Assembly (NCBI GenBank): GCA_014240275.1 | Contig: JAAZXH010000006.1 | Coordinates: 12,749 to 76,748, forward strand | Direction: 5' to 3' | Length of the DNA stretch: 64,000 bases | Source of the DNA: Candidatus Peregrinibacteria bacterium | GTDB taxonomy: Bacteria; Patescibacteriota; Gracilibacteria; UBA1369; GCA-2718715 | Part shown: in pieces, positions 42,416 through 63,927 of the stretch | How the letters are laid out: the number at the start of each line of letters is the position of its first letter | Numbering within the stretch: position 1 is the first letter of the stretch | Program-made: the position numbers and the translations under genes | Notes under the pieces: generated by a model | Told to the model about the DNA's origin: nothing | Seen by the model: the letters and a program-made list of their open reading frames with translations, nothing else | Databases searched by the model: none

Positions 42416-43456
42416 ATGGAAATTAAAAAAATCTTACAAACCGCAGTCAACTACAAAGCATCTGACGTTTACATAAGTCAAGGGATTAAGCCGTTTCTAA
42501 GGATAAACGGTAAGCTACATGAAATTGCACAACACGAAAAAGTTGACAAAGGACTCATAGAGTCCTACATAAAAGAGCTTTTAAGTAAAGAGCAAATAAA
42601 TAAGTTTGCAAATTCTAGAGATTATGATCTAGCTATAGAAATTAAAGACCTAGGGCGTTTTCGTGTCAACCTCTTCTGCCAAAAAAATGGTTACGGAATA
42701 GTACTACGCAATATTCCAGAAGAAATACTAAGTATCGATCAGTTAAATCTACCAAACCAAATCAAAAAGATCGCTGAACTCAAACAAGGAATAGTTTTAG
42801 TTACAGGACCAACCGGACAGGGTAAATCAACGACGATGGCCGCCATAATAAACGAAATCAACGAAAACAAAAAATACAACATCATCACTATTGAAGACCC
42901 AATTGAATTTGTGTATAAAAACAAATCATCCATTATCCAACAAAGAGAAATCGGCACCCATACAAACAATTTTCAAACAGCTCTAAAAAGCGCTCTGCGT
43001 GAAAGTTGTGACGTTATCTTAATTGGAGAAATGCGTGACCCAGAAACAATTCAACTAGCACTAACAGCAGCAGAAACAGGGCATTTAGTAATATCAACAC
43101 TACATACCTCAGGTGCTGCAAAAACTATTGATAGAATTATAGATTCATTTGAAACTAATAAACAAAATCAAATCAGAAACCAAATTTCAGAATCTCTCAG
43201 AACTGTCATTTGGCAACAACTTTTACCAAGTATAGATGGAAAAAGTCGTGTGGCAGCCCTTGAAATCATGAACAAAAACGAAGCTATTGGAAACCTTATT
43301 CGCAAGAACAAAACGTTTCAAATTGCATCTGTTATCGAAACCAACGTTCAAAAAGGAATGGTAAGTATGAAAAAAAGTATAGAAAATCACTTAGCAACCG
43401 GATTCATTTCGTCAGACGTAGCAGAAAAATACATCCAAGGTCTTGGTTTAAACTAA
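42416..43456 (+). CDS. pilT: Type IV pilus retraction ATPase PilT
   Basis: Walker A GPTGQGKSTT, IITIEDPIEF, Walker B ILIGEMRD, His box TGHLVISTLHT. An extended -10 (TGATACAAT) is at 42388-42396. Confidence 0.92.
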   Translation: MEIKKILQTAVNYKASDVYISQGIKPFLRINGKLHEIAQHEKVDKGLIESYIKELLSKEQINKFANSRDYDLAIEIKDLGRFRVNLFCQKNGYGIVLRNIPEEILSIDQLNLPNQIKKIAELKQGIVLVTGPTGQGKSTTMAAIINEINENKKYNIITIEDPIEFVYKNKSSIIQQREIGTHTNNFQTALKSALRESCDVILIGEMRDPETIQLALTAAETGHLVISTLHTSGAAKTIDRIIDSFETNKQNQIRNQISESLRTVIWQQLLPSIDGKSRVAALEIMNKNEAIGNLIRKNKTFQIASVIETNVQKGMVSMKKSIENHLATGFISSDVAEKYIQGLGLN

Positions 43457-47877: not shown

Positions 47878-49245
47878 TCATTTTTTAGAATTTTTAAATT
47901 CAGAATGACCTCTTAAAACCACCCATGGAGTCTTCCACAAAATCATTAAATCCATCCAAAAAGACCAATTTTGAATATAATACCTATCCAACTCAACCTC
48001 CTTTTCAAAAGATAGATCAGAACGACCACTTACCTGGGATAAACCAGTGATGCCAGGTTTTACATTAAATACAAACTTATGGTTTTCCGCATACCTTGCT
48101 ACTTCTTCTTGCAAATGTGGGCGCGGTCCTACCAAACTCATATCTCCCATTAAAACATTCCACAATTGAGGTAGCTCGTCTAAATCTAAACGCCGCAATA
48201 TTTGACCAAACCAAGTAACTCTTGGATCATTCTTGATTTTAACCAAAGGTGAATCTTTACGAAAATTTGCACCTTGTAAGTTATTATACCGCTCGGTATG
48301 CGAAGCTGCAATCATACTTCTAAATTTCAGCATAGTAAATAATTCTTGATTTTTTTTGACTCGATAAACGGGTTCGCCTTCGTCATTAGCAGTAAAGAAA
48401 ACTGGCCCACGGGAGGTCAATTTGACCAACACAGCCAACAACAAAAACAACGGAGACAAAATCAGCAACAAAACCAAACTGACTATAACATCAAATAAAC
48501 GCTTTATTATCCGACCCCAACCAGTGATCATAGTAACTCGCAATTTTACAAAAGGATTTAAATGCAAGCGTTTAGCTAAAGGTGTTTCGAAAGGTTTTAA
48601 AAACAGTTCCTTTTGATTGTTTTCGCAAAAACGAACTAACTTAGCAAAATCTTTTTCTGAACCACAGACTACAACGTCACACAAATTAGGATTTTCCAGC
48701 AACTTTGTTAAACTATAACTTTTACGTTTAAATTTATAAAAAGGATAACAAGCTAAAAAACTTTGTTTATCTGCATCGTCTAAACCAAAAAGTACAGCCT
48801 TGGGCAAATGTTTATTTTTTAAAGCTAAATTTAAAAAGATCTTATCCAAAACAAAGCGAAAAATCAGAATCAAACTCAAACTCAAAACAAAACCTAATAC
48901 AAATACACCTCTAGAAAAAGGAAAACTCCGCTGAACAAAAAAATACAACACTATTCCAAATATCCATAATAAAAAAATACGAAACACAGGCCAAAAATCA
49001 GATTTTAAATTAGCATCTAGACCAAAACGATACATCCCAAAAAATATACCTAAAAACACAAAAGCCAGGCCTGCCTTGATACTTACGCATACAAAATCAA
49101 GCAATGGCAAAAAATCTTTAGTCATTTGAGTAACATTGACTACTAATTGAGTTTGCCTTAAAAAATAAGCCAAAATCATAGCTAAAAAAACCGCACAAAA
49201 ATCCGCAATTAATTTAGAAAAACTATAATGATAAGCGATTTTCAT
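47878..49245 (-). CDS. Polyprenyl-phosphate sugar phosphotransferase (WbaP/EpsL-type bacterial sugar transferase)
   Basis: N-terminal TM bundle and a C-terminal catalytic domain (KRLFDVIVSLVLL, KFRSM, DELPQLWNVLMGDMSLVGPRP). Confidence 0.88.
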   Translation of the reverse strand: MKIAYHYSFSKLIADFCAVFLAMILAYFLRQTQLVVNVTQMTKDFLPLLDFVCVSIKAGLAFVFLGIFFGMYRFGLDANLKSDFWPVFRIFLLWIFGIVLYFFVQRSFPFSRGVFVLGFVLSLSLILIFRFVLDKIFLNLALKNKHLPKAVLFGLDDADKQSFLACYPFYKFKRKSYSLTKLLENPNLCDVVVCGSEKDFAKLVRFCENNQKELFLKPFETPLAKRLHLNPFVKLRVTMITGWGRIIKRLFDVIVSLVLLLILSPLFLLLAVLVKLTSRGPVFFTANDEGEPVYRVKKNQELFTMLKFRSMIAASHTERYNNLQGANFRKDSPLVKIKNDPRVTWFGQILRRLDLDELPQLWNVLMGDMSLVGPRPHLQEEVARYAENHKFVFNVKPGITGLSQVSGRSDLSFEKEVELDRYYIQNWSFWMDLMILWKTPWVVLRGHSEFKNSKK

Positions 49246-49260
49246 AAATATAAATTATTA

Positions 49261-49599
49261 CCCTTTAAAATCATAAGCCGAGTTCTGTTAGCATAAATGC
49301 CGTGGTCATCTATCTGGGCCTAAACTCACGCCTAGGCTCTTGCGATGGGCAACCTAATAACTTTAAGACCAAGTTTTACATAGGTTCCCGTCCCATCTTG
49401 CATCAGGTAGGGTTTACCAGGTTCCTCTAGTTACCTAGAGGCCCAGGCCTAAAGCCTGCTTTTCACCTTTCACCTTGCGGCTAGTATTGTCTCTGTGGCA
49501 CTTTCCCTAAGCTTGCGCTCGGCAGACGTTATCTGCTACCCGTCTTAACGATGCTCGGACTTTCCTCACCAAATTGGCGTAACCACTCCTTTTAAAGGG
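49261..49599 (-). ncRNA. rnpB: RNase P RNA, bacterial type A
   Basis: The minus strand reads CCCUUUAAAAGG...GAGGAAAGUCCG (P4 5' strand)...GUGCCACAGAGACAA...GGUGAAAGGUGAAAAG...ACAGAACUCGGCUUAUGAUUUUAAAGGG. The 5' CCCUUUAAAA pairs with the 3' UUUUAAAGGG (P1). Length 339 nt. Confidence 0.9.
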
Positions 49600-49661: not shown

Positions 49662-50252
49662 TTAAGAATTATAATATTCACATAATTTCAAACATTCTGT
49701 GGCGTGGTGATGAGTAGGATCTAATTTTAAAATTTTATTAAAAATCTCATAGGCTTCAGTAAATTTTTTAGAGTTCAATAAACATACTCCCAGATCAGTC
49801 AATACTAAAATATCTTCCGGAGCTAAAGAAGCAGCACGCAACAAAATAGCTAAACCTTGAATTTTTTCTCCGTAGTGAAATAAGCTCCAGCCCAAACAAC
49901 GTAAAATTTCAGCGTGATTCGGTTCAATTTTGTTAGCTAGATCCAATTGAGCAACTGAACGTGTCCAGTTAGTTTTAGAACCGTACACAAAACCTAATAA
50001 ATAGTGAGCATTGGCAGAAATAGGGTTTAATTTAATCGCTTGTTTTAGAGCCTTTTCTGCCCCTTCTAACTTGCGTAAACTTAACAGATTATCACCTAAT
50101 TCTTCATAAGCGTGACTATTATTAAAATCCTCACAAATCAACCCCTCTAATTCTTTAACAGCTAATTCGTGTTTACCACTTTGCTTTAGTGTTTCAACTT
50201 GTTCAAAAAACTCATTATATTCTTCGCGTCCTGTAACTTTATTTTTAAGCAT
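49662..50252 (-). CDS. TPR-repeat protein
   Basis: 196 aa made of about 5 tetratricopeptide repeats (A..AL..AI.L.P..A.A...LG pattern). Confidence 0.8.
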   Translation of the reverse strand: MLKNKVTGREEYNEFFEQVETLKQSGKHELAVKELEGLICEDFNNSHAYEELGDNLLSLRKLEGAEKALKQAIKLNPISANAHYLLGFVYGSKTNWTRSVAQLDLANKIEPNHAEILRCLGWSLFHYGEKIQGLAILLRAASLAPEDILVLTDLGVCLLNSKKFTEAYEIFNKILKLDPTHHHATECLKLCEYYNS

Positions 50253-50384
50253 TTAATTTTTTAAATCTTACTATCATATCACAGTTTTAATATTTTTTCA
50301 AACACATTAAGAAAAAAAACAAATAAACAATATAGTTTACTTTTATAAATAATTTTGATATAATAAGGAGATTAAATTGAATTT

Positions 50385-51401
50385 ATGAACCAAAAATTTG
50401 CCAATTTCCAAAGACACGAACTTTTAACTAAGTTCCAAAAGAGTCTAAAGTCTCAAAAAGAGCTTGAAAAGCGCGAAGACTACAACCATGTGTGCGTATA
50501 TCACGTATTTGTTCACGGAGCAGTTGACACTTACACCCCAAGCACTATTGCTGAAATTCTTGAGCAAGAACAAGACAATAAACTAGAATTACAAAATACA
50601 ATTTTAGATCACAAAATTAAACCTAAAGGCAAACTTAAAGAACTTTTAAAGTTTAAAACACCACTTTTAAAAGTTGCCATAATTCCTCAAAAAATCTACA
50701 AACGCATCGGTAAAGATGACAAAACCTACAAATACCGCAAAACTAGCCAGTACTTTTTAGCACCACTACCTCAATACAAAGTAGAAATTTTTGAAAACCA
50801 AGTTTACCTCCCAGTTATGAAATTAATGCCAAACCTTAGTAGTAAATTTATAGGGCACGTGCATGTAGATGAATTTGAATTTCAAAATTCCCTCCAACAA
50901 CTCCAACATACATCTAAAGCTTTAGAATTACGACTCCAAGGCTTACTACCAAATAAACATCCAGAGTTTGAAAATTATTACCAAGACAACCTAGAAGCCT
51001 TCTTATACGACACTCCCCTGACTCAAGAACTTACAAACCAAAGTATTTTTAATTGGATCAAAAAAGCCCAAACCGCAATCACCAAAAACCAAGATCTCAA
51101 CATCCCCGCAAACTTAAAAAGCGCCTTAAAGCAATTTCAAACACATAGTCATCATGTATTTGACTTACTTGAAGACTTTAAGCCAGCCCTTAGCCACACC
51201 GACTTTGCAAAACTCAGCTTTTACCACAAAAAATATCAAGAAACCCCAAGCCTAATCTGGGTGGCCAAAGCCTACCTAGTTTGGCAAGCCAACCTAGATA
51301 CAATTTTAACTTATTACCGTCACAACTCAAACCGCACTGACCTCCCAAAGACTGACGAAAGCACTCTTACTAAATTACAATATTTAAATCAATTATCATG
51401 A
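50385..51401 (+). CDS. Hypothetical protein (338 aa)
   Basis: Intact ORF whose TGA stop overlaps the ATG of the next gene (ATGA at 51398-51401). An extended -10 (TGATATAAT) lies upstream. No family recognised. Confidence 0.6.
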   Translation: MNQKFANFQRHELLTKFQKSLKSQKELEKREDYNHVCVYHVFVHGAVDTYTPSTIAEILEQEQDNKLELQNTILDHKIKPKGKLKELLKFKTPLLKVAIIPQKIYKRIGKDDKTYKYRKTSQYFLAPLPQYKVEIFENQVYLPVMKLMPNLSSKFIGHVHVDEFEFQNSLQQLQHTSKALELRLQGLLPNKHPEFENYYQDNLEAFLYDTPLTQELTNQSIFNWIKKAQTAITKNQDLNIPANLKSALKQFQTHSHHVFDLLEDFKPALSHTDFAKLSFYHKKYQETPSLIWVAKAYLVWQANLDTILTYYRHNSNRTDLPKTDESTLTKLQYLNQLS

Positions 51402-53503
51402 ATACAGATATACCATTTAAATCTCTACTAACAGCTAAGTCACAAGATGCCGCAAAACAACTGACTAAAGAGCAAGAACAATGCAAGGCAGAAACACAAG
51501 AACTAACTTTAAAATTAAAAGAAAATCAAGAGGCAAACGCACGGAAATTTTTGGAACAAAATCAGACAATAGTCAATAAACTTCGAAACATAAATCCAAG
51601 TCAACTAGAAGGTGAAACCTTAGATCCTAAAACCATCCAAGTTTTAGTAATTGCCAGACTCCTCATAGCCAAACACAGTGGTAAAACTAACGTTCAAGAA
51701 GGTGATTTTTCAGAAGGAATTAGCTTTACTAACCCACTAAGCCTACTAAAAGACAGCCATAACATTAAAGAGGGTTTACTACCACTATTTAATACTTTTA
51801 CAATTCAAGCACGATCAGGGCTTTTCACAAGAACCATTCAGGGCAATCAACTGCAAAAATCTGGAAGTAAAATCCCAAACGGAAAATCTGTTTTAATAGA
51901 CTTTATAAACAAACCAACTTCATACGTAGGTACTGTAAAAAATAATGAAGGAAAAGAAGAAAAACATCTTTTTATTAGACTACGTAACATTGGAAGAAAG
52001 AACGTTGCCAAGCAAGGAATTTTTGTTTCTGTCGCCTTTTTAAAATCCTCAATTTCCGAAGAAAAATATGACGCATTAATTCAAAAAAGCTGTGGCGAAA
52101 TAGCAAGTGAGACCCCAAAACAAAGCCAACCTAAAGTAATTCCTACAAGTCCAAACCAAGCTGAAAAACAGCCGCCAGAGGAAGCTGTAGAAACAACAAA
52201 GTCAACAAGCCCAATCACGCCCGAAACTTCAACAACTACAGAAGAAGCAAGCCAAACAAGCAATGAAACAATTACAGGAATTCTAGCACAAGCACAACCT
52301 GCAAGGAAAGGCAATATAGACACACATACACCAAAAGCACCGGGCCGAATACCACTACCAAAAACACCAGCTCTACCAACACCTGGACCAAACCCAGAAC
52401 TTAGCAGGCAAATACACGAACCCTTACAATCCAATCAAGAAACAGAACAGTGGTTAGAAGAACAGGCCGCTGCCGATAAAGCCCAAGAACAGGCCGCTGC
52501 CGATAAAGCCCAAGAACAAGCTGAGCGCGATGCCATTAAACTAGAAGACATAGATTATACCAATTTTAAAGAAGCTTTAAAATTAGTAACTAAAAAATTC
52601 ATCAACAATTTTGATAAAGCCTTTGCAGAACTTCAAAAGGAAGTTTTGGACATTCATGAAGAAACCTTTGAAAACAGAAACAGCAATCAAGAGATTCACA
52701 GTTTACACAATATTATCGTATCAACACTCAGCCTACAAGCAGAGCAAAAAGCAAAAGTTCTAGAAGCTATCCACAATTCTGTTTTAGAGGATGATGCCGA
52801 ATATTTCTTTAGCAAGATTACTGACTTTTTACCGAAAGGTTCAATAATTGCAAAATCAACTCAAGCCAAGTTAATAGAAAAATTTGCAAACCTCATTGCA
52901 GATAATGATTTAAATACAACTACTATTAACAAAACATTACAAGTTCTATCAGCCAGTAAGGATGGCAAACAGCATCTATCAAAAATCACTGCATCACTTA
53001 GCAAAATTGATCTTGAGGAACATGCAATGGATCTAAATCCAGTCATCCTACACCTCATCCCAATTGCAAGCATCCAAGCTTATTTTCAAACTCTAGACGA
53101 CGCAAATAAAATCACTTTTTTACAACAATATACACAGTACTCTGGTCAAAGTTTTTATGGAAACAGTAGTAAAAAGAATGGTTTTAGTATAAACCCAAGT
53201 AATGAAAGAACTGTAAAACAGAATTTAAAAAGCTTACTCAGTATCACAACAATGGATAAGCCAATCTACAGCGCCTTCCGATTTGGTCCACTCGTCGAAC
53301 ATAACAAAATCATTACTACCTTTTTTACTAAATCTCAAGACTACGCAGGCGCCTTCGAAGTGCGAGACGAAGTTGCAGATTTCATAGAAGAAACAATTCC
53401 CAGATCAGACCGATCAATCATCTATTTTGAAAAAGACATCAAAAAGTTCCAAACAATCCAAAAACTTATACAAAAATACATAGAATTGAAAGCATCACTC
53501 TAA
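51398..53503 (+). CDS. Hypothetical protein (701 aa): N-terminal shared module, Pro/Thr/Ser-rich linker, helical C-terminal region
   Basis: Intact ORF. Residues ~76-215 resemble residues ~74-214 of 55448-56983. There is a low-complexity linker (TPKQSQPKVIPTSPNQ...PLPKTPALPTPGPNP). No family recognised. Confidence 0.6.
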   Translation: MNTDIPFKSLLTAKSQDAAKQLTKEQEQCKAETQELTLKLKENQEANARKFLEQNQTIVNKLRNINPSQLEGETLDPKTIQVLVIARLLIAKHSGKTNVQEGDFSEGISFTNPLSLLKDSHNIKEGLLPLFNTFTIQARSGLFTRTIQGNQLQKSGSKIPNGKSVLIDFINKPTSYVGTVKNNEGKEEKHLFIRLRNIGRKNVAKQGIFVSVAFLKSSISEEKYDALIQKSCGEIASETPKQSQPKVIPTSPNQAEKQPPEEAVETTKSTSPITPETSTTTEEASQTSNETITGILAQAQPARKGNIDTHTPKAPGRIPLPKTPALPTPGPNPELSRQIHEPLQSNQETEQWLEEQAAADKAQEQAAADKAQEQAERDAIKLEDIDYTNFKEALKLVTKKFINNFDKAFAELQKEVLDIHEETFENRNSNQEIHSLHNIIVSTLSLQAEQKAKVLEAIHNSVLEDDAEYFFSKITDFLPKGSIIAKSTQAKLIEKFANLIADNDLNTTTINKTLQVLSASKDGKQHLSKITASLSKIDLEEHAMDLNPVILHLIPIASIQAYFQTLDDANKITFLQQYTQYSGQSFYGNSSKKNGFSINPSNERTVKQNLKSLLSITTMDKPIYSAFRFGPLVEHNKIITTFFTKSQDYAGAFEVRDEVADFIEETIPRSDRSIIYFEKDIKKFQTIQKLIQKYIELKASL
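52460..52513 (+). repeat. Perfect 27-bp tandem duplication inside the CDS
   Basis: gaacaggccgctgccgataaagcccaa occurs twice head to tail and encodes EQAAADKAQ twice. It is locally GC-rich. Confidence 0.95.
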
Positions 53504-53525
53504 TAATTACCCAAAAACCATACAC

Positions 53526-54065
53526 TTACACTTCTCTCTCTATTTGAAAATAGAAGAAATGTTCTAAAAAGTTATTAATTTGCTTTACAGTCTGTTCACA
53601 AGAGGCCAGCTCAGAGGAATTTAAATAAAGCGAAATCCGATTAATAAAAACTGCTTCTGCCACTTCTGAAATAATATAAGGCTGCCTAAAACGATCCCCC
53701 AAAATATCTTGTAGCTGATCCGATCCGGGCTCAGACATTTGAATGGTTTGTGGCAACATGGCTTGAAAATCCTGCTGAAAAGCTTCATTTTCAAACATAG
53801 GGCGAATTAATTTCTGGATCAAAGCAAATACAAAAGGCACTAACTTACCTTGCAAATCTACAAATTGCTCATGTGGCAAAACCCGCTTGAAAGAACTTAA
53901 TCCATTCGCAAATTGCTTTTCCTTAAAATACAAACTCGGATATTCCAAATCCGCCAGTACACGGTCGTAAAGTAAGCCACAAAACTCCTCCAATACCAAT
54001 TGCTGATCTTGCTTTCTGATACGAGCTAATTTAGTCACATACTTTTGCAAAGTCGTCTCATTCAT
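53526..54065 (-). CDS. Hypothetical protein (179 aa from the SD-supported start; the ORF is open up to 54242)
   Basis: A strong Shine-Dalgarno sequence, GGGAGGA, lies 6 nt before the ATG at 54063-54065 (MNETTLQKY...). The longer track ORF starts at a TTG. No family recognised. Confidence 0.55.
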   Translation of the reverse strand: MNETTLQKYVTKLARIRKQDQQLVLEEFCGLLYDRVLADLEYPSLYFKEKQFANGLSSFKRVLPHEQFVDLQGKLVPFVFALIQKLIRPMFENEAFQQDFQAMLPQTIQMSEPGSDQLQDILGDRFRQPYIISEVAEAVFINRISLYLNSSELASCEQTVKQINNFLEHFFYFQIEREV

Positions 54066-54344
54066 AAGATATCCTCCCATAAATGTGATAAAATGCAAAC
54101 GGTACCTCTGAAAATCCTGCAAACCAATATCACTTGATTCTAAAGGACTCAAGCCAGGAAAGAAACAAATCACTCGTCCGCCTTTGGACTGCTTTTTTCT
54201 TCGGATTTTTTTTACCATCCCATAAAGATTATATAAGTCCAAAGTATAGAACTTTCATCTTTTTGTCAAGCCCTCTTGTTAGCCAAGGCAATCACATGAC
54301 CCTTAGATTTTATAGAGTAAAAATTTTTAAATATCACCTAATCC

Positions 54345-55262
54345 TCAATCTAATAAGTTATGGCGGACTTTGTATCTTTGTATAAAAGGTCCTAAATCTA
54401 TATTATTGATTTTTAAACGGCTTAGCACCATTAACATATCTTCATTAAGCACTTGAATATCATCATCTACTTTTAGAAAATTTCCGGTTAATACAGTTAG
54501 CATCTGAACTAATAATTCCTCAACAGCAAGTTCTGAAAAATAGTTCGCTTGAAAATCATCAATTATTGAAATCCTATTTTCAATTTGTAAAAAATATGTT
54601 TCACAATTAAAAGAATTCATATCCCGCAAATAAGCTTGTAAAACAACATGCTTGTCACGTAATTTATCTATAAATTCATTTAATTTGTTTCTAACATCAA
54701 GGCGAAAATTGAAACTTAAAGGATCATCTAAAACCTCTTGATACTCTATACCCAAAGCTGCTACATCCTTAACAAATTGTGTTAAATACTTATGTAAATT
54801 TACTGCACCATCTGCTTCTTGTAAATTTAATATTTCTGTCGACATCTCAGTCAAAAAGACCAACATATCTTGGTAAAAAAATTGTATATCATTAAATTTT
54901 GATACGTTCTTACTCAAATAATTATATAAAACCTGCTTTAATTCATCATAATCCGGATAACTCCAACCATGCTGATGCATTAATGCATGCCAATACTCAT
55001 GAGTACATACACCTACTTCATAAATCTCGTCAAACTGTGAAAAATAAACCACCTTGTCCTTCGGATGATATTCAGCAAAATAATTAAAATTCTTTTCATC
55101 CAAAACTTTACCTACAACTCTCAGATTAATCCTTCGAACCATTGCCTCCAAATCCAAATCCACATTTAAACAGAATTGATCTGTTTTATCAGGAATTGTC
55201 TTAGATACAGATGTACATGAAACCAAAAGCATAGAAGACAACAACAATGATTTCATATCCAA
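54345..55262 (-). CDS. Putative lipoprotein with HExxH motif (candidate zinc metallopeptidase)
   Basis: Signal peptide with lipobox (SSMLLVSC|TS), then VGVCTHEYWHALMHQHGW containing HEYWH, and a helical C-terminal half. Confidence 0.55.
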   Translation of the reverse strand: MDMKSLLLSSMLLVSCTSVSKTIPDKTDQFCLNVDLDLEAMVRRINLRVVGKVLDEKNFNYFAEYHPKDKVVYFSQFDEIYEVGVCTHEYWHALMHQHGWSYPDYDELKQVLYNYLSKNVSKFNDIQFFYQDMLVFLTEMSTEILNLQEADGAVNLHKYLTQFVKDVAALGIEYQEVLDDPLSFNFRLDVRNKLNEFIDKLRDKHVVLQAYLRDMNSFNCETYFLQIENRISIIDDFQANYFSELAVEELLVQMLTVLTGNFLKVDDDIQVLNEDMLMVLSRLKINNIDLGPFIQRYKVRHNLLD

Positions 55263-55391
55263 ATTCTAAAGTACAAATCGACACAATAATAACAGCATCT
55301 CACTAATAAAGCAAGATTCCAAAAAAAATCACTTAAAAAAAACCTCCACACAAAAGGCTTTATTATCAAAAGTCTCTAAAACATAAAAAAC

Positions 55392-55420
55392 TTGCAAAGG
55401 ACAAAGAAACGTGTTACAAT
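55392..55420 (+). promoter_or_regulatory. Putative sigma-70 promoter
   Basis: TTGCAA-17 nt-TACAAT, 27 nt upstream of the ATG at 55448. Confidence 0.5.
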
Positions 55421-55447
55421 AATATGATTATCATTTAAATAATAAAA

Positions 55448-56983
55448 ATGAACATCCATAAACCAGGCAATTTAAGATTAAATACACCGGATCAAAAACA
55501 TCCTGAGGTGAAAGAAGTGCAAGATACCACCCAACAGTATTTAACACAACTCAAAAGCGAAATTGATACGGCCAACCCTAACGAAATACAATCATATTTA
55601 AATCAAGATCATGTCCAAAATGCGATTAATGAATTCCGAAACGGAAAATTTGATACACTAAATACTGCTCAAAAAAGATCGCTTCTCAAAGCCGCGATGT
55701 TCTATCGGGCCAAGTTAATGCAAGACAAACAAACTGAAGGAGCAACGGATGCAGGTGTTTTCTTTGGTGCAATGTTAGACAAAGCAACATTCGCAACTAC
55801 TGCAAGTCCAAACTCGCTTATTGAATCCTTAGACAACAAAACTGTTTTAAATAAACTTATTTTGCCTCTATTTGGTGAGATCAAAGTTACAACTCGCAAA
55901 GGAAATCTACTCACCAGAGATGCAGATGGAGATAAAATCGGCTCAATCCCATCAGGAGCTAGCTTAAAATTAGATATCAAAGCAGAGCCAAGTATGATGG
56001 TTGCAGAGACCGCCACAGATGCACATTTGTACACAGCTGTAATATTAGAAAACGGCTCCAAGGCATATGTTTGTACCGAATTTTTAGGCACCAAAGTTAG
56101 TAATCAAAAGTTTACAAAATTCCTCAAATCAGGTCAGCAACAAGCTGAAATGCAAGCATCTCTAGATGCTTACAAGGCCTATACAGACCTCGAAAGTAAT
56201 CTCGCAACTAAAGTTTCAGAAATCCAACAAAATAATCAAGCACTCAAGGACGCCGGTTTAAACAATCGTCTACAAAAACAGACATTAGAGGCTCTGCGAG
56301 AGCTAGTTCCCTTAAGAGATAATATAGACGAAGGTACAGAACTTGGCACCGTTGAAAAAAATAGAGAAAATGCAGCTGGCACTATCGAAGATAAATTGGC
56401 ATATTATCAAAGGATGCAAACCTTAGCCAAAACAACACAAGATAATCTTAGAACCTATATTGCTTCAAATCCAAGTGCAGAACCAGTAGCAGCAAAAAAA
56501 GTACGCGATAGGCGAGAAGCTATAAAAACAGGCCGAACAGCAGTAGAAGAAGCAACCAAGTATCGAGATAGCTTAGAAGCTCATGCAAAAGACGTAGAAT
56601 TAGACAGCTTAGACTTTGAAGACCTTGAAACAACTAGTAAGGTAGCTGCCAAACTGTTACTAGATCCAGCAGGCTTTAACACAAAAGTTCAAGATGAAAT
56701 TTTAACAGGGGTTTTCGAAGAAGAATCTACTGAATACAAACAACAGTTTCTTGGTCTTTTAAGCAAGATAAGACCGTTAATTCTAAAAAAAGGACACGAA
56801 CAATTGAAAGATATAAGGGGCAAAATAGACTCTAATACAAATCCAGAACACAAAGAGTTCTTAAAAACAGAATTTAAAGCCTGCAGCAAATTCTTTCGTG
56901 CTGGCCTTACAGGCACAGACTCGGCAAAGAAGGCAGTAGAAGCATCGATCAAACAGGATGAAGAAGATGAAAACAACGAATAG
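55448..56983 (+). CDS. Hypothetical protein (511 aa) with the shared N-terminal module and a helical, acidic C-terminus
   Basis: Intact ORF whose N-terminal region is paralogous to 51398-53503 (ILPLFGEIKVTTRKGNLLTRD..IGSIPSGASLKLDIKAEP). It has its own promoter and terminator. Confidence 0.6.
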   Translation: MNIHKPGNLRLNTPDQKHPEVKEVQDTTQQYLTQLKSEIDTANPNEIQSYLNQDHVQNAINEFRNGKFDTLNTAQKRSLLKAAMFYRAKLMQDKQTEGATDAGVFFGAMLDKATFATTASPNSLIESLDNKTVLNKLILPLFGEIKVTTRKGNLLTRDADGDKIGSIPSGASLKLDIKAEPSMMVAETATDAHLYTAVILENGSKAYVCTEFLGTKVSNQKFTKFLKSGQQQAEMQASLDAYKAYTDLESNLATKVSEIQQNNQALKDAGLNNRLQKQTLEALRELVPLRDNIDEGTELGTVEKNRENAAGTIEDKLAYYQRMQTLAKTTQDNLRTYIASNPSAEPVAAKKVRDRREAIKTGRTAVEEATKYRDSLEAHAKDVELDSLDFEDLETTSKVAAKLLLDPAGFNTKVQDEILTGVFEEESTEYKQQFLGLLSKIRPLILKKGHEQLKDIRGKIDSNTNPEHKEFLKTEFKACSKFFRAGLTGTDSAKKAVEASIKQDEEDENNE

Positions 56984-57048
56984 TAATTAGATAACATCCA
57001 AGCAGTCTCCAATCAGTTTTACCAAACTAACACTCCACAAAATATCAT

Positions 57049-57080
57049 AAAAGCCATCCCCAAAAAGATGGCTTTTATTG
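57049..57080. terminator. Rho-independent terminator hairpin between convergent genes
   Basis: AAAGCCATC-CCCAAAAA-GATGGCTTTTATT. Confidence 0.55.
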
Positions 57081-57155
57081 TAACCTAATTCAAAAGAATT
57101 GCTAAACAGCCAAGCCATTGTTGCTTATAAACCATTCTGGCAGTGTCTCAAAGAA

Positions 57156-58007
57156 CTAAATTTGAATCCCCTGGGCTCTGGCCACAGCCAGGGAGGCGCG
57201 CAAAAGGCCCTCGACTGAGCCGGCGTCAAAGCGTTCGCCTTGAATCTGCTTACCATAAACTTGCTGGCCTCGGGAGATTGCTTCCATCAAAACATTGGCC
57301 AGGCGCAACTCGCCGTTTTGAAAATTGTGCAAGGCAGACATTTCATCCAACAAACCTGGGATCTGGGGACTCAAAACATACTTGCCTATCACTCCAAAAT
57401 TAGAAGGAGCCAGACTCGGTTCAGCAGGCTTTTCGACTAGGCCTTTTAAAGGAGCATAATGCTGTTTGGGATCAAAGGGCTGGGCCAAATCAACCACGCC
57501 GTACTGACCCAACATATCCTGACTAAGCTCTGTAAGAGCGATTACCGAACCCTGAGTCTGCTCATAAACCTCCAGCAACTGGCTCAAGGCCGGAGTGTCT
57601 GAAAAAACTAAGTCATCTCCAAACAACACAGCCACCGGCTCGTTTTGCACCAAGTGCATGGCCTGCAAAATGGCATCGCCACAACCGCGAGGCACAGGCT
57701 GACGGACATAAGTAAATTTCGCCAATTTGGAAATGGCCTGGACTTCCTTTAAAAGCTCATGCTTGCCCTTTTCGACTAAATTATGTTCTAACTCAAAGGA
57801 ATGATCAAAATAATCCTCGATAGCGCGCTTGCCACGGCCAGTGACTATAATGATTTCTTCTATTCCGGAGGCTACCGCCTCCTCCACCAAATAATGAATC
57901 ACCGGCTTGTTTAAAACTGGCAACATTTCTTTAGGCTGAGTTTTAGTAACCGGCAGAAAGCGGGTTCCATAACCCGCCACCGGCATAATAGCTTTTTTTA
58001 CTTTCAC
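57156..58007 (-). CDS. galU: UTP--glucose-1-phosphate uridylyltransferase
   Basis: KAIMPVAGYGTRFLPVTKTQPKEMLPV, plus VLFGDD and later family motifs. Confidence 0.93.
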   Translation of the reverse strand: MKVKKAIMPVAGYGTRFLPVTKTQPKEMLPVLNKPVIHYLVEEAVASGIEEIIIVTGRGKRAIEDYFDHSFELEHNLVEKGKHELLKEVQAISKLAKFTYVRQPVPRGCGDAILQAMHLVQNEPVAVLFGDDLVFSDTPALSQLLEVYEQTQGSVIALTELSQDMLGQYGVVDLAQPFDPKQHYAPLKGLVEKPAEPSLAPSNFGVIGKYVLSPQIPGLLDEMSALHNFQNGELRLANVLMEAISRGQQVYGKQIQGERFDAGSVEGLLRASLAVARAQGIQI

Positions 58008-61706: not shown

Positions 61707-62333
61707 ATGAACAAACCGAATTTTCAAGAAAATCAAGGCAGCAAACCCATAGATATTTTAATGATTGTTTTATTAATTTTCACAATTGGATTTGGAGCCT
61801 TTAGTAAATTTCAAATTCAACAGACCAAAAAAGCTAACCAAAACATTCAAAACCGACTCAATATATTACAAAGCGCGCTTGATCCAGACCAAATGCAAAG
61901 CGTAAAGCTTCAAACCAAAAAAGCTTTTTATGATCAAAAACAAAACAACAAAATCTTTTACACTAATTTTATTGCACGGATCTTTCAAATTAACCAAAAA
62001 GCACTTAAATCAGCATCGCTGAGAGAGCAAGACAGCTTTAGCGCTAATTACCAAACCGATCAAAAAAGCCTCAACCCTCTTTTAGATAGCACAGTAGTTA
62101 TTAAAAGCTTTTCAGATTCCAAAAATTTCAAACAAACCTTTACTCCATCCATTAGCTTAGCAAAAAACATCTTCGATAAATTACAAACTAATTTTTCGGT
62201 ACAAGGCGATTACGAAGCCGATCTCAACGAAGAAATTTTTGCCACGGGTCAAAGAGCCAAAAGCCAAAAACAAGATCAAATTGAAAAAATTAAAGCCCAA
62301 TTAAAAGCTAATCCAGATCAAAATGAACGTTAA
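61707..62333 (+). CDS. Bitopic membrane protein, possibly PilN-like pilus assembly component
   Basis: Short cytoplasmic N-terminus, one TM, a Gln/Lys-rich periplasmic part, and first position in an operon with pilO-like and pilC genes. The assignment rests mainly on context. Confidence 0.35.
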   Translation: MNKPNFQENQGSKPIDILMIVLLIFTIGFGAFSKFQIQQTKKANQNIQNRLNILQSALDPDQMQSVKLQTKKAFYDQKQNNKIFYTNFIARIFQINQKALKSASLREQDSFSANYQTDQKSLNPLLDSTVVIKSFSDSKNFKQTFTPSISLAKNIFDKLQTNFSVQGDYEADLNEEIFATGQRAKSQKQDQIEKIKAQLKANPDQNER

Positions 62334-62838
62334 AAAATACCAAGCAGCCATTTTAGCTCTTTTAATTATAGTAGTTTATAATGCCTGGGTCAGCCCAGCC
62401 CGAAGCGAATTGGCAAACCAAAAAGAACAACTCGCAAATACTCAAAATCAGCTAGAAGAACTAAACCTGGTCGACATCGACTCCAGCCAAACTCAACTAA
62501 GCAGTCTCGACAAAGAAATACTAGACAAAGCTATTCCTAAAAACCACAACCAAGACCAGCTCATCGTGCAACTACAAGAACTCATGGACAAACACCAAGT
62601 GTTTAACAATGGAGGCTTTAGTTTCCAACAGTCTGCGGCTGATACCAAAAATCAGATCAAAATGATGCAATTTAGCTTCAGCGGATCCATCGGACTCGAT
62701 CGTTTACAAAACTTTGTAAAAGACCTCGAAACCCATGACCGCTTCTTTGATATTCAATCTATGAATTTCAGCATTGAAAGCATCGAAGACAAATCCGTAG
62801 CCAACTTCAACCTCAGCCTTCAAGTTTACTTTAGTTAA
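62323..62838 (+). CDS. PilO-like pilus assembly protein
   Basis: N-terminal TM, a coiled coil (ELANQKEQLANTQNQLEELN), then an ~90-aa globular domain. It sits directly upstream of pilC. Confidence 0.45.
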   Translation: MNVKKYQAAILALLIIVVYNAWVSPARSELANQKEQLANTQNQLEELNLVDIDSSQTQLSSLDKEILDKAIPKNHNQDQLIVQLQELMDKHQVFNNGGFSFQQSAADTKNQIKMMQFSFSGSIGLDRLQNFVKDLETHDRFFDIQSMNFSIESIEDKSVANFNLSLQVYFS

Positions 62839-62844
62839 AAATTT

Positions 62845-63927
62845 ATGAATCTTTTCAATCGCCTCAACAACTACCTCATCCAACACACTAAGGTCAAACT
62901 TAAAGACAAAGCCGATTTTTTTGGACTATTTGCAACCTTACAAAGTGCTGGGATTTCCACCATCAAAGCTCTAGACATTTTAAGTCGGGCCAGTCAAAAC
63001 CCAAAACTCAAACTAATCATCGCCCAAACCAAAGACGATGTTCAAAAAGGTCAAAACCTTTCGCAAAGCTTACAGAAACATCCAGATGTATTTAACAAAA
63101 CCGAAATCGGAGTCATCATCGCCGGTGAATCGATCGGACAGCTCGACAAAATGCTCCTAAAACTTAAACAAAAACTCAAACGTGATCTAATTTTACAAAA
63201 AGAAGTCAAAAGCGCAACCACCTACCCTATAGTAGTTTTATTAATCCTAGCTTTAGCTGGTGTAATAATGTTTGGTTTCGTAATTCCACAACTAGCTAGC
63301 ATGTTCGCCGAAAACGACATTCAGCTTCCCCGCCTAACCCGCATACTCATGGGAGTTTCTGACTTTTTGGTAGCTCAATGGTCAATTGTTTTAGCCAGCC
63401 TGGTACTAGTCGGGCTACTGGTTCAAAGCTATTTTGACAGCCCAAACGGACGCATCAAAAAAGATTACCTACTACTTAAAACACCAATTTTAGGAAAATT
63501 TTTAAGACTCTACTACCAAATTCGTTTTTTTGATACCCTTGGCAACCTTACAGAAGCCGGCGTGCCACTTGAAAAAGCCTTCGACATTATTTCAGAGGTC
63601 GTAGACAACAAAATCTACCAAATGCAAATTGTAGCCACCCAAGCCGAAGTTAAAAAAGGGAACAGTATTTCTGAAAGCCTGCTAAGCGCCCAATTCTTAT
63701 TCGAAGAAACCGCCTCCGAAATGCTAGCCGTAGGTGAAAAAACTGCCAACATCTCTGAAATGTCACAGGAAGTGGCCCAAACCCAAACCCACGAACTTTC
63801 ATACCGTCTACAAAACCTAACCACCATTATAGGACCCGTCGTAATTGTTGCAGTCGGTGTAATGGTAGCCATCTTTGCCCTGGCAATTTTAAGCCCAGTA
63901 TTCTCCCTTTCGCAAGGTGTCGTTTAA
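62845..63927 (+). CDS. pilC: Type IV pilus platform protein PilC (GspF family)
   Basis: Two GspF-type repeats (VQKGQNLSQSLQKHPDVFNKTEIGVIIAGESIGQLDKML and VKKGNSISESLLSAQFLFEETASEMLAVGEKTANISEM) and three TM segments. Confidence 0.88.
   Translation: MNLFNRLNNYLIQHTKVKLKDKADFFGLFATLQSAGISTIKALDILSRASQNPKLKLIIAQTKDDVQKGQNLSQSLQKHPDVFNKTEIGVIIAGESIGQLDKMLLKLKQKLKRDLILQKEVKSATTYPIVVLLILALAGVIMFGFVIPQLASMFAENDIQLPRLTRILMGVSDFLVAQWSIVLASLVLVGLLVQSYFDSPNGRIKKDYLLLKTPILGKFLRLYYQIRFFDTLGNLTEAGVPLEKAFDIISEVVDNKIYQMQIVATQAEVKKGNSISESLLSAQFLFEETASEMLAVGEKTANISEMSQEVAQTQTHELSYRLQNLTTIIGPVVIVAVGVMVAIFALAILSPVFSLSQGVV

Follow-up and report, generated by a model that had tools for sequence, protein, structure and literature searches.

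The stretch of DNA analysed here, called the window below, comprises 64,000 nucleotides of contig JAAZXH010000006.1 (positions 12,749 to 76,748) from the assembly GCA_014240275.1 of a Candidatus Peregrinibacteria bacterium. Between a TPR gene and galU it carries a block of five open reading frames (ORFs) at 50385-56983, all of which are present where the initial annotation of this DNA had placed them. The block is best explained as a lineage-specific, fast-evolving locus of a small, marine, Peribacteria-like clade of the candidate phyla radiation (CPR), built from two gene pairs. Judged from sequence comparison, the second pair, ORF4-ORF5, is best read as a protein-encoding "replacement flexible genomic island", in which one slot, from ORF3 to the galU stop codon, holds anciently diverged alleles. 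ORF1 (50385..51401, plus strand) encodes a soluble, basic protein of 338 aa with a pI of 9.1, and ORF2 (51398..53503, plus strand) a protein of 701 aa. The two genes are translationally coupled through an ATGA overlap. ORF3, on the minus strand, encodes an acidic protein of 179 aa (53526..54065) or 238 aa (to 54242). ORF4 (54345..55262, minus strand) encodes a predicted lipoprotein of 305 aa if read from TTG 55262, and ORF5 (55448..56983, plus strand) a protein of 511 aa.

The replacement of ORF4-ORF5 was found in near-identical genomes. Sequence L093 shares 96.2% nucleotide identity with window positions 54296-52510, which cover ORF3 and the ORF2 C-domain, and its first 327 nt encode a different C-terminus of the ORF4 family. 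Sequence L090, from the same sequencing run, contains the N-terminal part of an ORF4-like gene, a divergent ORF5-like gene (P0010) and then a galU that is 97.95% identical to window positions 57157-57790. The reverse complement of L090 and L093 overlap by an exact 28-mer, and L090 alone and L093 alone each join a divergent cassette gene to a near-identical flank. No nucleotide similarity was detected between the flanks when the window cassette was compared with the L090/L093 cassette. The joined ORF4' is full-length and has a lipobox and the motif HELFH; protein identity to the window counterpart is 27% for ORF4' and 30% for ORF5'. Both junctions are sharp. On the left, similarity begins at 54296/54297, about 25 nt upstream of the promoter-like -35 element of ORF3, and on the right it begins at the galU stop codon. 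The replaceable cassette therefore corresponds to window positions 54297..57155 (2.86 kb), including the divergent intergenic promoter region and the terminator. The known alleles are roughly equidistant, at 25-37% identity, with the exceptions of L082/L085 (54%) and of the window and its sister species (84%).

A further sequence, L092, is 97.7% identical to the window up to position 54572, inside ORF4 (at about aa 231), and then continues into unrelated DNA. This switch (L092 1-221) leaves a chimeric ORF of 102 aa (P0008) with only the C-terminus of ORF4. Contig L002 ends at 54557. There may be a second breakpoint or a structural variant inside ORF4.

In evolutionary behaviour, the ORF4-ORF5 cassette is the protein-pair form of an already known locus type. 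Aquatic replacement flexible genomic islands, exemplified by O-chain, glycosylation and exposed-structure islands (Lopez-Perez, Martin-Cuadrado & Rodriguez-Valera 2014, PMC4033161), typically encode exposed structures and are exchanged between clonal frames by homologous recombination, with phage pressure thought to be selective (PMC4033161). The cassette resembles these islands in that one slot is filled in all strains by very divergent genes, homologous in function, between nearly identical flanks, and in that identical versions occur in different genomic backgrounds. Further points of likeness are the marine planktonic setting and, at the flanks, substitution gradients or peaks as a sign of homologous recombination. 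The differences concern size and content. With two genes in 2.86 kb the island is tiny, in place of a glycosyltransferase cluster it carries genes for two proteins of unknown family, its alleles are recognisably homologous (25-37%) rather than different in gene content, and one gene, ORF5, shows a ratio of nonsynonymous to synonymous substitution rates (dN/dS, omega) above 1 within an allele class. As to the exposed structures typical of such islands, ORF4 is a predicted outward-facing lipoprotein and ORF5 lacks an export signal.

When galU was used as an anchor, one close genome was retrieved among 185,579 species representatives. This is GCA_964521035.1 (L002, L083), a metagenome-assembled genome (MAG) labelled 'uncultured Candidatus Peribacteria bacterium'; the remaining galU matches were at most 48% identical. 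Compared with this sister MAG, protein identity is 82% for SecA, 85% for FtsH and 61% for hsp20, and dS reaches 2.6 in ftsH and 2.0 in hsp20. Identity of the backbone is about 75%, with nucleotide values of about 63-87%, and that of the ORF2 C-domain, ORF4 and galU is 91-100%. Over the 705 nt covered (window 54557-55262), identity is about 100% in ORF4, and in galU it is 99-100% up to about 57900, where it drops sharply in the galU 5' end. In ORF2, dS is saturated over aa 1-200 and then falls stepwise to 0.49, 0.14-0.18 and 0-0.03. This pattern is the signature of a recent import of the cassette and its flanks across the species boundary by homologous recombination. The identity mosaic against L083/L002 (52000-57900) implies a recent interspecies recombination tract of about 6 kb. 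Three points make a simple assembly chimera unlikely: a single contig contains the gradient, its ORF5 is not the window allele, and L001 and L002 independently agree. At 57750-57900, galU shows an in-frame indel of 42 bp (14 aa, ...FELEHNLVEKGKH...), which gives 283 aa in the window and 269 aa in the sister species; the two proteins are otherwise 99.6% identical.

The window and sister alleles of ORF5 differ by 98 nonsynonymous and 14 synonymous changes (dN=0.086, dS=0.044, omega=1.97). A binomial test of the synonymous deficit gave p=0.011, and the contrast with galU was highly significant, as omega in the flanks is 0.02 for galU and 0.04 for ftsH. The changes in ORF5 concentrate in aa 1-120 and 421-511 and spare a predicted beta-barrel, described below. 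On these counts, ORF5 is under apparent diversifying selection. Between strains, dN/dS of the ORF2 C-domain is 0.35-0.81, and ORF3 and the ORF4 C-terminus are almost invariant. A diversity-generating retroelement was considered as the cause of ORF5 variability and rejected: no template/variable repeat was found, the only repeat being a 27-nt tandem repeat in ORF2, and no reverse transcriptase was seen among the neighbours scanned.

The initial annotation had proposed the five genes as one system. This part did not hold, since the co-occurrence check left two pairs only, with ORF3 confined to near-identical relatives. The block is thus composed of two conserved gene pairs, ORF1->ORF2 and ORF4<->ORF5, rather than of one five-gene operon. 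ORF1 with an overlapping ORF2-like gene was found in the sister MAG in the SecA-Bac_transf-TPR context, where ORF1 is 61% identical, and on a distant contig of 1.5 kb at 32% identity (the pair recurs in L083 and L084). The divergent ORF4<->ORF5 adjacency was found in four independent lineages at 25-37% identity (the window with L002; L082; L085/L087; L090), with different flanks; a galU-type gene again follows the pair in L090. In L085, a distant relative, the pair stands in the context of a UvrD/PD-(D/E)XK helicase, a 773-aa unknown protein and SLH-domain proteins, and no ORF1, ORF2 or ORF3 was found within about 10 kb of it. ORF3 is known only from near-identical copies, a cluster of 7 on short contigs from several samples, and is 98-99% identical between alleles with few substitutions.

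Two long neighbours of these loci were examined as ORF2 homologues and rejected. The 773-aa protein next to the ORF4-like gene in L085 is unrelated, and the 709-aa neighbour in L091 is a pentapeptide-repeat protein. Pentapeptide-repeat proteins of 263 aa (L085 14953-15744) and 709 aa (L091 2687-4816) lie 3-5 kb from an ORF5-like gene in these unrelated loci; this proximity could be a coincidence or a loose association.

The protein families of the block are new. Searches of Pfam, NCBIfam, PADLOC and PHROGs with all five proteins and their homologues gave nothing above noise down to E<=10; for the five proteins, PHROGs yielded no match below E=0.04 and PADLOC none at E<=1. No match was obtained in PDB sequence and profile searches with ORF1 to ORF5. 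Foldseek was run with the AlphaFold models of two proteins. The best PDB match of the ORF4 model had E=0.3 and was a generic helical bundle. The ORF5 model gave E=0.044 in PDB (CagA, TM-score 0.13) and E=0.006 in BFVD (TM-score 0.11), neither of which is meaningful. A word-indexed search of 5.8 billion proteins returned ORF5 itself with one relative, and ORF2 itself only. In an exhaustive phmmer search of 1.84 billion representative proteins, with ORF1, ORF3, ORF4 and ORF5(1-240) concatenated as the query, 13 matches were found, all from Peribacteria-like, partly marine (TARA) assemblies. They comprise two for ORF1, at 61% (P0005) and 32% (P0009) identity; one for ORF3, at 94%; five for ORF4, namely the window protein itself, a near-identical 102-aa fragment and three at 27-32%; and five for the ORF5 N-terminal part, one at 93% and the others at 29-41%. 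A profile of the N-terminal module shared by ORF2 and ORF5 added one TARA fragment, an ORF2-like protein. Since TARA ocean samples also yield relatives of the block proteins, the lineage is a marine, Peribacteria-like CPR lineage.

No relatives were found in two scans of Joint Genome Institute (JGI) metagenomes, in scans of IMG/VR with the family alignments of ORF5, ORF4 and ORF1, or by tblastn against phage genomes. A prophage or mobile element as the source of the block was rejected, as there is no integrase, no att-like or flanking repeat and no viral relative. These searches bear out most of the initial annotation, which had recognised no family for any of the five proteins and had described the genes as lineage-specific and partly paralogous. 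It had also described four of the proteins as free of signal peptides and transmembrane (TM) segments, two as sharing an N-terminal module, and one as a lipoprotein with an HExxH motif. Hydropathy agrees on the first of these points for ORF1, ORF2, ORF3 and ORF5, whose maximum 19-residue Kyte-Doolittle score is below 1.3. The other two points also stand, and their details follow.

The lipoprotein is ORF4. Its signal peptide and lipobox were judged by eye and with a hydropathy script, using the criterion [LVI][ASTVI][GAS]C, and a basic n-region, a hydrophobic h-region and a lipobox were all found. The signal peptide is closed by the lipobox L-V-S-C with Cys16 (55215..55226, minus strand), as read from the sequence. 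It reads MKSLLLSSMLLVS|C in the window, MRLALISALLVS|C in P0012 and MRNIFFALALTS|C in P0013. The lipobox is LVSC in P0012 and LTSC in P0013, and an atypical SMAC (...VGSMA|C) stands in L090/L093. The motif HEYWH (His88-Glu89-x-x-His92; 54987..55001, minus strand) is preceded by a conserved Cys86, and C[TV]HE[YL][WF]H is present in 4/4 members of the ORF4 family that cover the region, at 25-30% identity. Besides the signal peptide and lipobox, the homologues retain the second Cys, C-x-H-E-x-x-H, and the motifs NPLxxN and E-x3-Q-x-LT-x-L. The Cys residues and C-x-HExxH would fit an extracytoplasmic disulfide or metal site. We infer metal binding or catalysis by ORF4 from this sequence pattern, in which the Cys-x-His-Glu-x-x-His site is probably metal-binding.

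The AlphaFold2 model of ORF4, built from a 4-sequence alignment, has a predicted local distance difference test score (pLDDT) of 68 (below 50 for aa 1-62) and a predicted TM-score (pTM) of 0.68, and shows a helical bundle with helices over 87-300. The HExxH motif lies in the predicted helix 87-98, the first long helix after a few short strands. ORF4 resembles zincin metallopeptidases in this placement of a conserved His-Glu-x-x-His in a predicted helix after short beta-strands, and metallopeptidase-like lipoproteins in being extracytoplasmic by virtue of the lipobox. Unlike zincins, it has no zincin match in Pfam, NCBIfam, PDB profiles or Foldseek. After the motif comes a helical bundle, some 200 aa long, that has conserved motifs of its own (NPLxxN and E-x3-Q-x-LT-x-L), and an invariant Cys stands two residues before the first His. 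Comparison of ORF4 with peptidase families gave no Pfam or NCBIfam match at E<=10, and the PDB profile search returned designed coiled coils and the like at E>=0.04.

The deposited ORF4 protein, P0004, has 295 aa and begins with MLLVSC, so that this gene call probably truncates the signal peptide. The homologues favour a longer start, MKSLLLSSMLLVSC, at ATG 55256, and this ATG (MKSLLL...) is most likely the ORF4 start. One member of the family, P0014 (206 aa), retains the C-terminal helical motifs but has neither the signal peptide nor the lipobox nor the HExxH part; it could be a pseudogene, a paralogue that was truncated or the product of a miscalled start.

ORF2 and ORF5 are paralogues by profile comparison of their predicted N-terminal modules. 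BLASTP of one against the other gave only E=0.017. Over the shared module of about 165-170 columns, hhalign assigned a probability of 96.3% (E=1.7e-9), and 97.3% (E=1.7e-11) in a local re-run; jackhmmer with either family also detects the other. In the module, helices precede a barrel with the pattern LPLFG...R...G...P...HLY...G..YV..EF. In ORF2 it covers aa ~44-228 (51527..52081, plus strand), with helices and an SH3-like beta-barrel, and is followed by a hypervariable linker rich in Pro, Thr, Glu and Lys and by a helical C-domain. Partial ORF2 homologues were found in L083, L084 and P0016. The linker differs in length and sequence in every relative, with a 45-aa indel against L083 and a divergent sequence in P0016. 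It contains a perfect 27-nt tandem repeat of 2.3 copies (52458..52518, plus strand) that encodes EQAAADKAQ. The assemblies L092 and L093 break or diverge exactly at this repeat, which suggests that its number or sequence varies between strains.

The AlphaFold2 model of ORF5 (7 sequences, pLDDT 70) shows helices at 27-141, a barrel at 144-213 and long helices at 219-510. The predicted barrel is a seven-stranded SH3-like beta-barrel (aa 144-213; 55877..56086, plus strand), modelled there with pLDDT of about 60-80, and it is the least variable part of ORF5, with 1 nonsynonymous difference in aa 121-180. The ORF5 homologues are 25-41% identical. Pfam SH3_3 matches 1/7 family members at E=0.11, below significance, and Foldseek with the whole ORF5 model, a query dominated by helices, found no SH3-fold match. 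ORF2 and ORF5 resemble bacterial SH3b/SH3_3 domains in the predicted barrel of about 70 aa and in the pattern G-x-L-x-x-R...G...Y/F-V. They are unlike the SH3b/SH3_3 cell-wall binders in that the carrier proteins lack export signals and the barrel stands between a helical region and a long coiled coil, not on a hydrolase domain. A weak common motif was found further towards the C-terminus, at ORF2 380-417 (IKLEDIDYTNF...) and ORF5 383-419 (VELDSLDFEDL...), over 37 columns with E=0.0018 and a probability of 15%. Further hidden paralogy among ORF1, ORF3, ORF4 and the C-domains was searched for and rejected, this motif of the ORF2 and ORF5 C-domains being all that was found.

The pair ORF4-ORF5 behaves as a replacement island and forms a two-gene protein cassette, and we therefore favour, with a confidence slightly short of even, the reading that it is a strain-specific contact or recognition module. 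Alleles pass between species by homologous recombination in the flanks, and amino-acid changes in ORF5 outpace silent ones within an allele class. As a module of this kind, the pair would face an antagonist or partner outside the cell, for instance a phage, a cell of the host or partner, or a competitor. ORF5 and ORF2 would be elongated proteins that dock to a conserved cell component through their conserved barrel, and the hypervariable N-terminal helices and C-terminal end may give specificity. The lipoprotein ORF4, on the outer membrane face, could be the anchored partner, a processing enzyme or an anchor. Negative frequency-dependent selection would retain many alleles in the population. 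ORF2 and ORF5 have a common predicted plan: helices with an SH3-like barrel, a variable coiled-coil or disordered linker, a short (E/K)LDxLDF-type motif and a helical C-domain. We infer here the surface exposure of ORF5 and ORF2, a physical partnership of ORF4 and ORF5, and the nature of the selective agent. The initial annotation had speculated on a host or partner interaction or on an envelope role. The cassette replacement, the cross-species allele and a dN/dS of about 2 point in this direction. As no biochemical function can be assigned, a dedicated system is suggested rather than established.

Several observations weigh against a contact or recognition module. The main weakness is that ORF2, ORF5 and all their homologues have no recognisable export signal or TM segment, and surface exposure would therefore need an unknown export route. 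No sequence or structural link to any adhesin, receptor or peptidase family was found. For ORF4, Foldseek gave no match to a zincin fold in PDB below E=0.3. As to a third metal ligand, His96 and His98 are not conserved in the homologues, and the sole invariant downstream acidic residue is Glu249, about 160 residues further on. The dN/dS value of ORF5 comes from one allele pair, whose differences could depend on one another if recombination took place within ORF5. Where ORF5 varies, ORF4 does not, and no fine-scale co-evolution of the two was seen. The sequences compared are all metagenome assemblies, yet five independent assemblies agree. A bolder form of the same reading, which we regard as unlikely, takes ORF4-ORF5 together with the paralogous ORF1-ORF2 as an undescribed, protein-based specificity system of CPR bacteria. 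In it, a membrane-anchored metallo-lipoprotein and an exported, signal-less fibrous protein would set partner attachment or attack by phages or competitors, with ancient, frequency-dependent alleles that cross species.

Among the alternatives, a polymorphic toxin/immunity or kin-discrimination pair fares best, and we consider it rather improbable. Here ORF5 and ORF2 would be the proteins delivered, each with a trafficking module conserved at the N-terminus and an effector end that varies at the C-terminus, and ORF4 (ORF1 in the case of ORF2) would be the immunity, processing or chaperone partner. Polymorphic toxin/immunity cassettes of the LXG and Rhs types have a conserved N-module, a variable C-end, a co-replaced cognate neighbour and ancient, horizontally moving alleles. 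Whole cassettes would be swapped because the partners must match, and ORF4 and ORF5 are indeed always replaced jointly, with allele classes that are roughly equidistant and an adjacent partner gene of its own for each paralogue. The N-module is conserved and the C-terminus of ORF5 is the most variable part (45 nonsynonymous vs 6 synonymous changes in aa 421-511); the N-terminal 120 aa, however, are hypervariable too. A lack of Sec signals is also seen in substrates of specialised secretion, but besides type IV pilus components no dedicated secretion genes were seen within the window ORFs scanned. No known toxin, immunity, trafficking, LXG, Rhs or WXG domain was matched. The typical immunity gene is small, downstream and co-oriented, whereas ORF4 is large (305 aa), divergent, a lipoprotein with a catalytic-looking HExxH, and lies upstream of ORF5; on its downstream side ORF5 is followed by galU, which is encoded on the other strand.

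The block could also hold poorly constrained orphans without a joint function, lying unrelated to each other in a recombination hot spot under relaxed selection, and we regard this as very unlikely. In its favour, the five genes show no detectable function or family, ORF3 occurs only in very close relatives, L085 does not keep the five-gene arrangement, and an omega of 0.35-0.8 in the ORF2 C-domain fits relaxed constraint. Against it, both pairs persist down to 25-35% identity with intact, full-length genes in an unchanged arrangement, and the lipobox, C-x-HExxH, NPLxxN, LPLFG and the barrel residues are kept. Moreover, omega of ORF5 is significantly above 1 and not merely about 1, and within its allele class ORF4 does not vary.

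An anti-phage defence or abortive-infection module, with ORF5 and ORF2 as cytoplasmic sensors and ORF4 as a membrane-associated effector, has an equally low probability in our view. A dN/dS above 1, cassette-like allelic replacement and interspecies transfer are common in defence genes. The locus, however, is syntenic and always occupied rather than present or absent, and the predicted outward orientation of ORF4 turns it away from phage components in the cytoplasm. The five proteins have no PADLOC match and no nuclease, NTPase, TIR, SIR2 or similar effector domain, and no relatives were found in IMG/VR or phage genomes. As improbable is a cytoplasmic scaffold organising a polar or contact structure from inside, by analogy with the Mycoplasma attachment organelle and its coiled-coil and acidic proline-rich proteins: long, charged, helical or coiled-coil proteins without export signals, the acidic Pro/Thr-rich linker of ORF2 and a minimal genome of a probably partner-dependent organism suit it, but an omega of about 2, alleles of 27-30% identity between flanks of 96-98%, cross-species sweeps and an extracytoplasmic, co-replaced partner such as ORF4 are not expected of it.

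The reading as a contact or recognition module matters since how CPR bacteria recognise and attach to partners or evade phages is largely unknown, in part since the relevant genes are 'hypothetical'. The locus is a small, exactly bounded candidate of two genes and 2.86 kb with three signatures of an interaction interface: ancient alleles between near-identical flanks, allele sharing across species, and a dN/dS above 1. An orphan block thereby becomes a testable hypothesis. The cassette shows further that replacement-type islands are not restricted to clusters for glycan synthesis and may be formed by a cognate protein pair, even in a minimal genome. If the specificity system were real, Peregrinibacteria would gain in it a first candidate for a gene locus that determines partner specificity, and the SH3-like coiled-coil proteins would have to leave the cell by a new export route.

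The starts and signals of the genes were also examined. Upstream extension of ORF2 and ORF5 is impossible because their stop-to-stop frames begin at 51374 and 55439. The ORF3 start is, on sequence grounds, most likely ATG 54065 (179 aa); GGGAGGA stands 6 nt before it, and a TTGACA-type promoter-like site lies upstream of ORF3 at about 54270. A promoter-like site precedes ORF1-ORF2 (TTTACT-17-TGnTATAAT, 10/12 matches; 50336..50364, plus strand), and another lies before ORF5 (TTGCAA-17-TGnTACAAT; 55392..55420, plus strand), within the divergent intergenic region of 185 bp. Both are consensus matches only. A terminator hairpin with a 14-bp stem was found by the scan between the convergent ORF5 and galU (57047..57078, minus strand). 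It falls inside the swapped cassette, and the spacer is not conserved in L090. The promoters and the terminator reported initially were thus recovered by the scan. The promoter-like matches are only about 1.7x as frequent as in shuffled sequences and are weak evidence by themselves. An Rfam scan of the block and folding of the ORF3 leader revealed nothing.

The G+C content of the window is about 29-42%, and the GC skew is negative throughout. Housekeeping and envelope genes flank the block on both sides. Upstream lie genes for a PilT-like ATPase (42416-43456), a sigma-70-region-4 protein, a TrmB-type regulator, SecA, a Bac_transf sugar transferase (47878-49245), the RNase P RNA (49258-49598, minus strand) and a TPR protein of 196 aa (49662..50252, minus strand; Pfam TPR_2 and further TPR families). 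The TPR gene is divergent from ORF1, and the two are also adjacent in the sister species (L083); the TPR protein is a possible accessory component of the block. Downstream follow galU, hsp20, ftsH, a gene for a PP-loop (TilS-like) protein, two unannotated ORFs and a gene for a PilC-type T2SSF protein. Envelope genes are among the neighbours, in support of the contact or recognition reading: the window has galU and the Bac_transf sugar transferase, and L085 has genes for SLH-domain proteins. Compared with their orthologues in the sister species, the Bac_transf protein is 54% identical and the TPR protein 73%, against 82-85% for SecA, FtsH and the sigma-like protein. Fast evolution thus extends to the entire envelope-related neighbourhood.

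Long antisense ORFs of 86-130 aa lie over ORF2 (52081-52434, minus strand), ORF5 (55702-56094, minus strand) and galU (57143-57403, plus strand). Their conservation in relatives simply follows from that of the sense genes, and most likely none of them is a gene. Directly upstream of the PilC-type T2SSF gene (62845-63927), two overlapping ORFs of 208 and 171 aa without a Pfam match occupy positions 61707-62838. Both are also kept in L001, and they may be uncharacterised components of a type IV pilus.

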